From positions 669,254-733,253 of the forward strand of contig JAKLDG010000001.1 of NCBI GenBank assembly GCA_022703645.1: DNA of 64,000 bases, written 5' to 3'. Within the stretch, counting starts at the first letter, position 1; the number at the start of each line of letters is the position of its first letter. Below are positions 55,065 through 57,987 of the stretch, one piece after another. The DNA comes from Patescibacteria group bacterium. Its GTDB lineage: Bacteria > Patescibacteriota > JACPGU01. The notes under the pieces are model-generated. The model made no database searches. It was not told where the DNA came from and saw only the letters and a list, made by a program, of their open reading frames with translations. The position numbers were made by a program, and so were the translations under genes.

Positions 55065-56232
55065 TTATTTATTTTTAGAAACTCTTCTATATTCTTCTCT
55101 ATAAATATCTCGCAACCCTTCTTCTATTTTAAAGGCTTTTGCATGCGAGCAAACTCCCATATATGACATTACCGTTTGACGAAAGTTTTTCAGAGTGATT
55201 CCCCCTTTATTTAATAACCCTCTTTTTTGTTCAATTTTTCTAAACATTCTCTTTTTAGTTTTAGTTCGAAGAAGTTTGTGATGAGGAAAAACCACATATC
55301 CCAAAAAATCCATTCCCTGATTCGGCTTGCAGATAATAGTTTTATTATGATGCAACTGAAGTTTTAAATTTTCCTGAAGAAAAATTTCAATTCGAGATAA
55401 TTCGCCCAAATCCGCATAATTCGCGATCACCATATCATCGCAATATCTTGCATAGCACCTGATTTTCAAATTATGTTTTATAAATTGGTCCAATTCGTTT
55501 AGATAGATATTAGCAAATAATTGGGATGTAAGATTTCCCAACGGAATTCCTCGAGCCGAATTCTTTGTACTCTCTCTCTCTCTCTCTCTCTCTCTCTCTC
55601 TCGATTTGTTTTTCCGCAAAACTATCAATTACTTCTTTAATCAACCATAAAACATCCTCGTCTTCGATTCTCTTTTTTATGAGATCAAACAATATTCCAT
55701 GATCTATAGACGCGAAGAATTTTTTGATATCGCATTTAATGATTATTGGTCGGCATTTTGTAGAGGCGAATCCCTGTGTTCGCCTAGATCCGGGCAGACA
55801 CGGGGGTCTGCCCCTACGAATAAATTTTTGCAATCTATTTACCGCCTTATGTGTTCCTTTATTATTTCTGCACGAATAAGAATCGTAAATAAATGTTTTA
55901 TCAAAAATCGGATATAAAATTCTGTAAATAGCATGATGGACGATGCGGTCGCGAACACAGGCCTTATGGATATGTCTTCTTTTTGGATCGTTGATGAAAA
56001 AAGAGGTATAATAGGAATGTTTGTAGGTTTTGGACTTGAGCTCATCGTGAAGTTGAAATAAATTGTTTTCGAGATTCAGCGCGAATTCTTGAACATCACA
56101 TTTGCTCATTTTTACCTTCTTAAATTCTTTCCAAGAAAGATACAGGTTTTCTATTGAAATAATATTAACAAAAATATCATGACTAGCGCCACTAACCAAA
56201 CTGCCGATTTTTTTCTCCCCGATGTCATTCAT
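55065..56232 (-). CDS. diversity-generating retroelement (DGR) reverse transcriptase, split into two overlapping frames by a (TC)16/(GA)16 tract
   Basis: ORFs 55510-56232 and 55065-55628 together align along Bordetella phage Brt: DRIVHHAIYRILYPIF, NNKGTHKAV, IKCDIKKFFASIDH, GIPLGNLTSQLFANIY (DGR hallmark), YARYCDD (YxDD), FLGYVV; +1 frame offset at the repeat. Confidence 0.85.
55571..55602. repeat. (TC)16 dinucleotide microsatellite inside the DGR RT gene
   Basis: tctc...x16 encodes (RE)n/(ER)n in both overlapping frames; +1 or -2 units would fuse the two RT frames. Confidence 0.9.
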
Positions 56233-56574
56233 AAAATGATGATTTTTTATAAGGATATTTATACTATGTGCAAGAAATTACCAAAGCACGATCGTTTTGG
56301 AGTCGGCAAAAATATTGAGGATGAATCCCTTGGATGTTTAAAAAAAATGATTGAAGCTGCCCTAACGCCTAAGGGATTAAAAAGAGATATAATTCAAAAG
56401 GCAAGAATAAAAATAGAGATTTTAAAAAAGCTGATTACACTGTTGGAAGAATTAAAAATAATTGATTACAAGAAATGCATGGATTTACAAAATCAGTTAC
56501 AGGTGATTTCGAAAATGACTTACAAGTGGATCGTCTCGATCTCGCCTCAAAAAGAACAAGAAGCCCCAGAATAA
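56179..56574 (+). CDS. avd: DGR accessory variability determinant (Avd-like four-helix-bundle protein), divergent to the RT
   Basis: ...IFYKDIYTMCKKLPKHDRFGVG...LQNQLQVISKMTYKWIVSI resembles TIGR02436 four-helix-bundle/Avd proteins; M at 56236 is an alternative start that avoids overlap with the RT 5' end. Confidence 0.7.
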   Translation: MTSATNQTADFFLPDVIHKMMIFYKDIYTMCKKLPKHDRFGVGKNIEDESLGCLKKMIEAALTPKGLKRDIIQKARIKIEILKKLITLLEELKIIDYKKCMDLQNQLQVISKMTYKWIVSISPQKEQEAPE

Positions 56575-56593
56575 AACGAGACTTCTCAATTCC

Positions 56594-56719
56594 AGAAACT
56601 TCGGAGCGGGGACGCAGATTGTCATTGTCATTATCGGCACTCGTGTTGTTCACGTTGAGCTTGTCATTGGAGTTCCAGTTGACGATCACAGCATTACCGT
56701 CGAGATAGCGCGAACCCGA
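56594..56719 (-). repeat. DGR template repeat (TR)
   Basis: 126 bp ~86% identical to 57064-57189; 16 of 17 mismatches are A (minus strand) in this copy; minus-strand frame reads GNAVIVNWNSNDKLNVNNTSADNDNDNL (Asn AAY-rich). Confidence 0.85.
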
Positions 56720-57035
56720 AATATATCTGATTCCTTCTGTAAATCACCGGCTTTCTTGACTCGAGCTTAGTCGAGAGTTTTTTCAAGATTCCTGCGTTCT
56801 CTTCAAACCATTTTGAAGATCTAAGTTTCCGACCAATATCTTTAGAAAAATATATGTCGCGCAGAATCAGATAAGCAGTTTCTTTTTTACGGCAAATCGA
56901 TATTTGATCTCAGTTTGAAAAACTAAAATCAAACCGATTGTATTAGCCAAAATAACTATACAAAAAAAGAACCCTTTCGTCAAAAAACGATTGGGTTCAA
57001 TTTAATTCAGGAATTCAGGATTCAGGATTCAGGGA

Positions 57036-57860
57036 TTAAGCTGCCTCAGGCAGCTTTTCAAAAGAAACTACGGAGCGGGGACGCAGAGAGCCATTGCCAT
57101 TATCGGCACTCGTGCAGAACACGCTGAGCTCGTCATCGGAGTACCAGTGGACGAGAACAGCATAACCGTCGAGATAGCGCGAACCCGAACAGAGCGTCCA
57201 ACTATTAATGTCCAGATGCTTTCCGGTTTCCCACCAGTAGAAGAGCTCAAGCACGAGTCGCTCTTCGAGGGTGATGCCTTCCCGTATTCGGACGTCATCG
57301 CTTTTCTGGCAAGCGTCGAGCGAGATACCTTTATTTTCCTCGTCTGCTTCCACTCGATCGCGCGCTCGGATCGCATAGGTTTCTTCGGTGGTGCGGATTG
57401 AGGTAACTTCTCGATCCAGATCATCTTTCCAGCGCCATGCGCCGAATTTTTCTTTGCATTTGGCGAAGAGCTCGTTGCGAGTGAGCCCTTTCAGAACGAC
57501 AATGAGCCAGCGGAAGTCCTCGGGGTCATCTGGAATCTCAAGATTAGATAAGTCAATTTCTTTCCCGAAGATCTTGCGATAGAAACGCTGCCACTTTTCC
57601 AGCAGCTTTTCCCTTTCGATAAAACTCTCAATTGTTCCATTTTGGTACGCGCCCAGAACCTTGATTGCCAACTCAGGTTTCATACCTTCAGGAACGGTGA
57701 TGTCTCCATGTTTGGCAAAGGGATTTTGCCGTTTTAAAAAAAGTTTAAGCTCATCCCAAAACCCCTTGCGTTTGGACTTAGTCCAAAAATCATTTTGCAA
57801 GTCAGCTACTTCTTCAGCCGAAATGCCACCGATCTTGGCTATTTTTTCTTTCTTCGCCAT
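57036..57860 (-). CDS. DGR variable (target) protein, no signal peptide, C-terminal variable-region ligand-binding fold
   Basis: VR encodes the C-terminal ~42 aa (...GYAVLVHWYSDDELSVFCTSADNGNGSL...); likely start M5 (57860) after AGGTGG; ORF track 57036-57872. Confidence 0.75.
   Translation of the reverse strand: MAKKEKIAKIGGISAEEVADLQNDFWTKSKRKGFWDELKLFLKRQNPFAKHGDITVPEGMKPELAIKVLGAYQNGTIESFIEREKLLEKWQRFYRKIFGKEIDLSNLEIPDDPEDFRWLIVVLKGLTRNELFAKCKEKFGAWRWKDDLDREVTSIRTTEETYAIRARDRVEADEENKGISLDACQKSDDVRIREGITLEERLVLELFYWWETGKHLDINSWTLCSGSRYLDGYAVLVHWYSDDELSVFCTSADNGNGSLRPRSVVSFEKLPEAA
57038..57056. promoter_or_regulatory. perfect palindromic hairpin 8 nt downstream of VR, spanning the target gene stop codon (DGR homing cruciform-like element)
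   Basis: aagctgcc-tca-ggcagctt; position relative to the VR/IMH mirrors the BPP-1 DGR hairpin. Confidence 0.6.
57064..57189 (-). repeat. DGR variable repeat (VR) with GC-rich IMH-like 3' end
   Basis: Partner of TR with substitutions at TR adenines; 3' end (minus strand) ctgcgtccccgctccg is retained with one change in TR. Confidence 0.85.
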
Positions 57861-57987
57861 GATCAGCACCACCTTTCTCCCATTTAGGGGATAGATTTGT
57901 AATGTTCAAACTGCGAACATTTTCAAGCTAAATTATACCACAAAATTAAAATATTGTAAATATATTTGTTATTAGAGCCAAAAAAGT

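Follow-up and report, generated by a model that had tools for sequence, protein, structure and literature searches.

The window analysed here is a 64-kb stretch of contig JAKLDG010000001.1, taken from a Patescibacteria metagenome-assembled genome, and it carries a chromosomal diversity-generating retroelement (DGR) of the kind typical for bacteria of the candidate phyla radiation (CPR). Positions are counted from the first letter of the window. As a DGR the element is already known in kind: it is a CPR B3-type cassette with a target of the C-type-lectin (CLec) fold. Its reverse transcriptase (RT) gene is divided between two reading frames inside a (GA)16 dinucleotide repeat, and the cassette is off as sequenced. 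The reading favoured here, to which we give somewhat better than even chances, is that of a DGR of known kind that is off at present and is controlled by a slipped-strand (GA)n contingency repeat.

The (GA)16 repeat in the reverse transcriptase gene

The RT was found as two open reading frames (ORFs), 56232-55510 and 55628-55065, which lie in different frames and overlap at the (GA)16G tract (Table 1). Past the tract, the N-terminal frame continued into a 19-aa junk tail and reached a stop at 55510. An earlier note on this DNA had described the DGR as complete; this was not borne out, the RT being split across two frames inside (GA)16. The locus records past mutagenesis and, because the RT frame is broken, cannot yield a full-length RT from the DNA as written. 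(GA)16 was the only dinucleotide repeat of at least seven units in the 64 kb. Following simulation of tract lengths, a single RT ORF was obtained only at n = 11, 14, 17 or 20.

For tests of RT sequence and structure the two ORFs were joined by hand, resulting in the n = 20 allele. The best PDB match of the joined RT was 8ub7_A, the DGR RT of a Bordetella phage (bRT), with E = 6e-37, compared to 6e-18 for the group II intron RT GsI-IIC. Using the predicted structure as query, the top five Foldseek matches were all DGR RT entries (template modelling score 0.81). By sequence and by predicted fold the RT was thus nearest to bRT and not to the group II intron RT. The likeness to Bordetella phage Brt given in the earlier note therefore stood, as did the DGR-specific motif, which was located in motif 4; its treatment of the RT as one gene did not stand, two ORFs being present. 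Relative to bRT, two insertions were seen, both in low-confidence parts of the model. One comprised the (ER)n tract and a linker before motif 4, the tract being predicted to sit in a loop just ahead of this motif; the other was a 58-nt element, described below.

Past activity of the cassette was read from its repeats. A repeat search and direct alignment gave a direct repeat of 127 nt (56594-56720 and 57063-57189, offset 469) with 17 mismatches. The latter count agreed with the earlier note, whose length of 126 bp and start at 57064 had to be corrected to 127 nt and 57063. For 16 of the 17 mismatches, as in the earlier note, the - strand base of the 56594 copy was A; these comprised A>T (7), A>G (6) and A>C (3), and the single non-A mismatch was a G>T adjoining a mutated A. 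The hypergeometric probability of this A-specificity, given 33 A in 127 nt, was P = 2e-10. All but one of the 33 adenines (32/33) were at codon positions 1-2. Because the mismatches were A-specific and the AAY codons were in the 56594 copy, this copy was designated the template repeat (TR) and the 57063 copy the variable repeat (VR). The translations quoted before for the Asn-rich TR peptide and for the VR peptide were both exact. No further VR was detected in the 64 kb by an A-masked search. The 16 A-to-N differences show that mutagenic homing occurred here in the past. The parts from which an adenine-mutagenesis DGR had been proposed were all present, namely A-specific mismatches, a DGR-type RT, an Avd match and a CLec target.

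Tract length was compared between assemblies of the same lineage. The tract had n = 16 in the window and in L001/L005 (JGI contig, identical to the window), and n = 15 in L004 (ENA assembly). This was the sole difference across 8.7 kb, and both lengths are out of frame. Correspondingly, N-terminal products of 240 aa (n = 16) and 243 aa (n = 15) were present in the protein database, the 240-aa product on four contigs of 0.2-1 Mb. As in contingency loci, the repeat in the window is intragenic, has a unit length not divisible by 3 and sets the frame, and shows length polymorphism between otherwise identical sequences.

The tract in related CPR DGRs

Among the closest full-length RTs, several carried (ER)n at the same place of the alignment. 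Pure (GA)8, (GA)8 and (GA)12, each followed by GTAC, were found at the same codon site in RTs 59-68% identical to the window RT. A frame-blind DNA pattern, consisting of (GA)4GTAC, a gap and back-translated motif 4, was used for scanning and gave 20 further loci with n = 6-15, 5 from genomes and 15 from metagenomes. The genome loci included Saccharibacteria, Taylorbacteria and other Patescibacteria. Approximately 5/16 of the alleles were in frame and 11/16 out of frame, and both out-of-frame classes occurred. In nearly all of these loci both flanking ORFs were open, the upstream one mostly over 140-235 codons (shorter at contig starts) and the downstream one, YxDD included, over approximately 155 codons where the contig allowed. 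A scan of viral contigs for the tract-plus-motif pattern gave zero matches, and a phage origin was left unsupported.

Four near-identical pairs differing by one GA unit were obtained, counting that of the window lineage. Two of them crossed between in-frame and out-of-frame alleles within one lineage: apart from one GA unit, the in-frame L013 (n = 13) showed 0 mismatches in 4961 nt to the out-of-frame L029 (n = 12), and the in-frame L014 (n = 11) showed 0 in 1143 nt to the out-of-frame L022 (n = 12). L023 (n = 13) and L024 (n = 12), neither of them in frame, likewise had 0 mismatches in 775 nt besides the one unit.

Purifying selection on both RT halves was observed despite the out-of-frame alleles. 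The ratio of nonsynonymous to synonymous substitution rates (dN/dS) was 0.076 in the N-terminal and 0.062 in the C-terminal half for L011/L020, and 0.036 and 0.096, respectively, for L010/L020, with both members out of frame in each comparison. Between the window and L006 it was 0.10-0.12 in both halves. A-specific TR/VR pairs were retained at off loci. For L011 and L020, both off, the TRs were 93% identical and the VRs approximately 79%, with the differences at TR-A sites; mutagenic homing therefore acted after the split of these lineages.

The tract-bearing RTs grouped together on a rough neighbour-joining tree. By sequence comparison, the tract is not a private lesion but a conserved, hypermutable repeat in a clustered set of CPR DGR RTs. 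Homopolymers were found in other CPR DGR RTs. L030 carried a G18 tract (3553-3570) at the same site before motif 4, and L031 and L032 carried a G8 tract (3697-3704) just after YxDD; all were out of frame with the downstream half intact. These poly-G tracts look like convergence.

A protein search was carried out with one RT N-terminal half. The 120 closest relatives were almost all half-length ORFs: an out-of-frame tail came after (ER)n in 66 and after poly-Gly at the same site in 9, and 25 ended in the tract at contig ends. Motif 4 was reached by 13, one of which had a tract. In a 50%-representative search the relevant clade collapsed into few clusters.

Two side observations were made at the related loci. 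GC-rich palindromes were present 4-5 nt past (GA)nGTAC in L006 (19-bp stem, 3165-3205), L011, L013, L017, L020 and L028, for example CGGCGC-TTC/TCC-GCGCCG, with folding energies of -12 to -17 kcal/mol. Their arm sequences varied by lineage and the structure was kept. In the window (-6.2 kcal/mol, z = -0.4), L007, L009, L019 and L026 this hairpin was weak or missing, and for this reason it was ruled out as a general frameshift stimulator. Secondly, between L020 (reverse complement, 8563-8855) and L024, more than 30 substitutions and small indels were clustered in a 385-aa secreted-looking ORF approximately 6 kb from the DGR, within 6.8 kb that was elsewhere 100% identical apart from the tract. 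The cluster was rejected as a remote VR, having no similarity to the TR, and another source of local hypervariability therefore acts there.

Switching, decay, recoding or error

In the favoured reading, TR-containing RNA would be reverse-transcribed by an RT-Avd complex with misincorporation opposite template adenines, and the resulting cDNA would replace the VR, thereby changing up to approximately 16 codons (10 AAY plus 6 more) for the ligand-binding face of the CLec fold. Slipped-strand mispairing in replication would add or remove GA units and toggle the RT between one in-frame and two out-of-frame states. Mutagenic retrohoming would thereby be heritable yet reversible (phase-variable), and the window genome would be in the off state, one GA unit short of n = 17. 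We infer switching as the function of the tract, its reversibility in this lineage and the transcription scheme. Extended to the clade, the proposal is that these CPR DGRs evolved (GA)n or poly-G in the RT as contingency switches, with off as the usual state, rare slippage opening bursts of diversification, and the switch of the window off; the chances of this wider version seem to us evenly balanced. The rare slippage would act at the DNA level or possibly at the RNA or ribosome level.

The main rival is decay: the RT of this lineage would be a pseudogene heading for loss, the expanded (GA)16 a lesion and the VR frozen. Most of what weighs against a switch in this lineage can be told as evidence for this account. 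The retrieved assemblies of the lineage contained only out-of-frame lengths (15 and 16), with L004 and L005, whose contigs measure 282,413 and 282,390, possibly being two assemblies of one sample, and no intact RT of at least 90% identity was found among 5.8 billion proteins. In P0244 (JGI, 571,549-nt contig) the product is 185 aa long as a result of a separate 2-nt frameshift in the N-terminal half, corresponding to approximately 55690 of the window, where HGILFDL is changed to HGIYCLIS and a stop, consistent with an extra AT. The VR was the same in every retrieved assembly, including L003, which showed three spacer differences, and the whole target protein, VR included, was identical across all assemblies. 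Finally, the tract of this lineage is longer than that of every other locus examined, and its RT also carries the unique palindromic 58-nt insertion. The out-of-frame lengths, P0244, the fixed VR, and the long tract with the insertion fit decay as well as a switch. Other features of the same locus are harder to reconcile with a dead element. In the window, the 210 codons before the tract and the 168 after it contain no stop or other frameshift; no damage is seen in TR, avd, target, hairpin or the catalytic YCDD; the RT ORF is restored by a single GA unit; and the low dN/dS between the window and L006 extends over both halves. Moreover, a lesion at the same site across many lineages with conserved halves is unlike random decay. 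Overall, decay was judged unlikely.

For the clade as a whole, the composition of the protein sample counts against free switching. GA-tract proteins among the 120 closest relatives were 66 out of frame and 1 in frame, and 1/67 is far from both the 1/3 expected under free switching and the 5/16 of the DNA scan. Either the protein search could be biased, or off could be the normal state with another expression route. The latter is the basis of a recoding account, in which the out-of-frame arrangement is normal, low levels of full-length RT are produced by ribosome (+/-2) or RNA polymerase slippage, and the tract sets dosage. GAG-AGA re-pairs perfectly after a 2-nt slip, both halves are under purifying selection in spite of the 66:1 excess of out-of-frame alleles, the VRs diverged between the two off lineages L011 and L020, and several lineages have the GC-rich hairpin 4-5 nt past the tract, with the 19-bp stem in L006. 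Programmed frameshifts, however, are normally fixed in direction, whereas all three frame relations were found here, even among near-identical sequences; neither a fixed direction nor a conserved stimulatory structure was observed, the hairpin being absent or weak in the five loci listed above. To our knowledge, bacterial RNA polymerase slippage is established for homopolymers and not for GA dinucleotides, which also counts against recoding. We regard this account as rather improbable. Lower still are the chances of an artefact, by which the true tract is in frame and the frameshift arose from a sequencing or assembly error in a low-complexity repeat. PCR (polymerase chain reaction) stutter at dinucleotide repeats is well known, the two assemblies that disagree (15 versus 16) are perhaps from the same sample, and Logan contigs (k = 31) break within the tract. 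Nevertheless, n = 16 recurred in JGI, NCBI and ENA contigs, neither observed length is in frame, and many lineages and samples yielded out-of-frame alleles at tract lengths down to n = 6-9, for which errors are improbable. An artefact was accordingly considered very improbable.

Other parts of the cassette and relation to known systems

Table 1. Features of the DGR locus, in window coordinates; promoter-like and terminator-like sites are consensus matches only.
Feature	Position	Strand	Remarks
RT C-terminal half	55065..55569	-	Motif 4, motif 5, thumb; open, frame differs from N-terminal half
RT motif 5 YCDD	55431-55445	-	Catalytic, intact
RT motif 4 GIPLGNLTSQLFAN	55509-55550	-	SQ-containing
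(GA)16G microsatellite in RT	55570..55602	-	Frameshift point, proposed slipped-strand switch
RT N-terminal half	55603..56232	-	Motifs 1-3; open from ATG 56232 to tract
58-nt GC-rich double-hairpin element	55760..55817	-	In frame, between RT motifs 2 and 3
avd	56179..56574	+	131 aa (112 aa from ATG 56236), four-helix bundle; antisense to TR, RT and target
12-bp hairpin, T-rich tail	56557..56588	-	5 nt past TR, spans avd stop codon
TR	56594..56720	-	10 AAY codons read in VR register
Promoter-like site TTGACG-17-TATAGT	56955-56983	-	Overlaps terminator-like hairpin, points at TR
Intrinsic-terminator-like hairpin, then T run	56962..56998	-	After target
Target gene	57036..57860	-	274 aa; alternative GTG start at 57872 gives 278 aa
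Hairpin, perfect 8-bp stem AAGCTGCC/GGCAGCTT, loop TGA	57038..57056	-	6 nt past VR
VR	57063..57189	-	Last 42 target codons ahead of 12-codon tail
GC-rich block, A-free, CTGCGTCCCCGCTCCG	57071..57086	-	Putatively IMH-like; near VR 3' end, identical TR copy at 56602-56617
Promoter-like site TTTACA-17-TATAAT, extended TG	57932..57960	-	Upstream of target; 11/12 consensus positions

The gene order of the DGR is target-VR, TR, avd (on the opposite strand) and RT, and the cassette is flanked by ordinary housekeeping genes. The same avd orientation and B3 layout were found in the relatives L006, L007, L009, L030 and L031. An Rfam scan of the 64-kb window gave RNase P RNA and four tRNAs only, none of them inside the DGR.

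The 58-nt element in the RT adds 14 residues relative to P0121 and 18 relative to bRT (PCLPGSRRTQGFASTKCR in the bRT alignment). It consists of GTAGGGGCAGAC...GTCTGCCC...GGCGAA...TTCGCCTCTAC, with two hairpins closed by a GTAG/CTAC stem. Its DNA fold was -15.5 kcal/mol (z = -3.9), and the encoded residues were modelled with pLDDT <50. No second copy was found in the window and none in any related locus, so that the element is confined to this lineage. It is similar to the in-frame palindromic elements of Rickettsia genes.

Of the 3' elements in the earlier note, the 8-bp hairpin was indeed 3' of the VR; the GC-rich block, placed there as well, was located within the 3' end of the repeat. By analogy with BPP-1 this block was tentatively assigned as similar to the initiation of mutagenic homing (IMH) site. 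It is the same in both repeats, and 3' of it the TR and VR differ by a single A/T difference. The 8-bp hairpin overlaps the target stop codon (DNA fold -8.5 kcal/mol, z = -3.35), and no hairpin of this type was found downstream of the TR. The 12-bp hairpin past the TR possibly belongs to the TR RNA or serves as a terminator in both directions. At 57005-57033, between the target stop codon and the terminator, the heptamer CCTGAAT occurred in four tandem copies, one of which had an additional T.

The 131-aa protein had been proposed as Avd, and this was confirmed by profile matches to NF033474 DivGenRetAVD (E = 4.5e-13, significant; 49 bits, where the cut-off is 80) and PF22296 bAvd (E = 6e-8, significant, below the curated cut-off). 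A PDB sequence search with Avd gave nothing meaningful. The position of the gene on the opposite strand, which the earlier note had missed, is conserved among relatives. The RT ATG at 56232 (-) and the likely avd ATG at 56236 (+) are head-to-head, 3 nt apart (56215-56238), and such head-to-head starts were shared by relatives, ranging from a 3-nt gap to a 15-nt overlap. Because of this arrangement, the promoters and ribosome-binding sites of RT and avd must each lie inside the gene of the other. In L007 a second four-helix-bundle gene (8702-9091; PF05635, 23S rRNA intervening sequence (IVS) protein family) was observed 2.6 kb downstream of the DGR, adjoining the gene for ribosomal protein S20.

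The target protein corresponds to HRY59875.1, on an 867-kb contig. In agreement with the description of a small, cytoplasmic-looking target with the VR at its C-terminus, it lacks a signal peptide, and 12 codons separate the end of the VR from the stop. Its N-terminal part is helical, and residues ~118-266 were placed as a CLec-fold domain with the VR at the C-terminus, by fold comparison only, a PDB sequence search having given nothing meaningful. No Pfam match was obtained for the target family. GC content was 48.8% in the target gene (57036-57860) and 50% in the TR, compared to 34.6% in the RT, 33.6% in avd and 33.9% in the window; target and template are thus compositionally foreign relative to the remaining cassette.

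Wu et al. 2017 term the TR-(avd)-RT order "architecture B3" and attribute 90% of CPR DGRs to it (PMC5758913); the gene order and orientation of the B3 DGRs reported there are the same as in the window. The DGR variable proteins TvpA (2y3c), TaqVP (5vf4) and Mtd (1yu0) are also among the closest known systems. The BPP-1 DGR (mtd-VR, avd, TR, brt) is alike in its adenine-specific TR-to-VR pattern and AAY-rich TR, in the C-terminal VR of a CLec-fold protein, followed by a GC-rich block and hairpin, in its Avd-like accessory gene, and in the RT with an SQ-containing motif 4, which was most similar to bRT. The DGR of the window differs in lying on the chromosome of a CPR bacterium, outside any phage context. 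Furthermore, its avd is located between TR and RT on the opposite strand, its target has neither a signal peptide nor a tail-fibre context, and its RT has two insertions and is frameshifted.

As a switch, the (GA)n tract has its counterparts in Helicobacter pylori, where CT/GA dinucleotide repeats in the outer-membrane protein genes oipA, sabA and hopZ serve as contingency loci for phase variation. There too an intragenic dinucleotide repeat sets the frame by its number of units, alleles differ in unit number only, and in-frame and out-of-frame alleles occur in natural populations with the flanking ORF parts intact. The differences lie in the gene and in the site. In H. pylori the switched gene encodes a surface antigen and the repeats are near the 5' end, whereas here the gene encodes the enzyme of another hypermutation system and the repeat is mid-gene, in a loop of the polymerase, where switching is presumed.

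DGR regulation is poorly understood, and constant mutation of a functional protein would be expected to carry a cost. In surveys, a sizeable fraction of the candidate DGRs is reported to look "inactivated" and is dropped. The survey of Wu et al. 2017 retained putatively functional RTs only, and intragenic microsatellites are unmentioned in it (PMC5758913). No description of repeats in DGR RT genes was found in the searchable literature, an absence that is no proof of novelty; as far as this literature shows, a repeat-gated RT is undescribed. The locus also adds a DGR target family of 283 homologues with a CLec fold, no signal peptide and no Pfam match, which may or may not coincide with one of the "UVR" classes of PMC5758913. 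Individual long reads can phase tract length with VR heterogeneity, the two being separated by 1.5 kb. If gating holds for many of the broken RTs, DGR activity in the very abundant CPR bacteria would be heritable and come in bursts instead of being constitutive, and counts of "functional" DGRs would be underestimates. Targeted protein hypermutation would then itself be gated by a second, stochastic hypermutable device.

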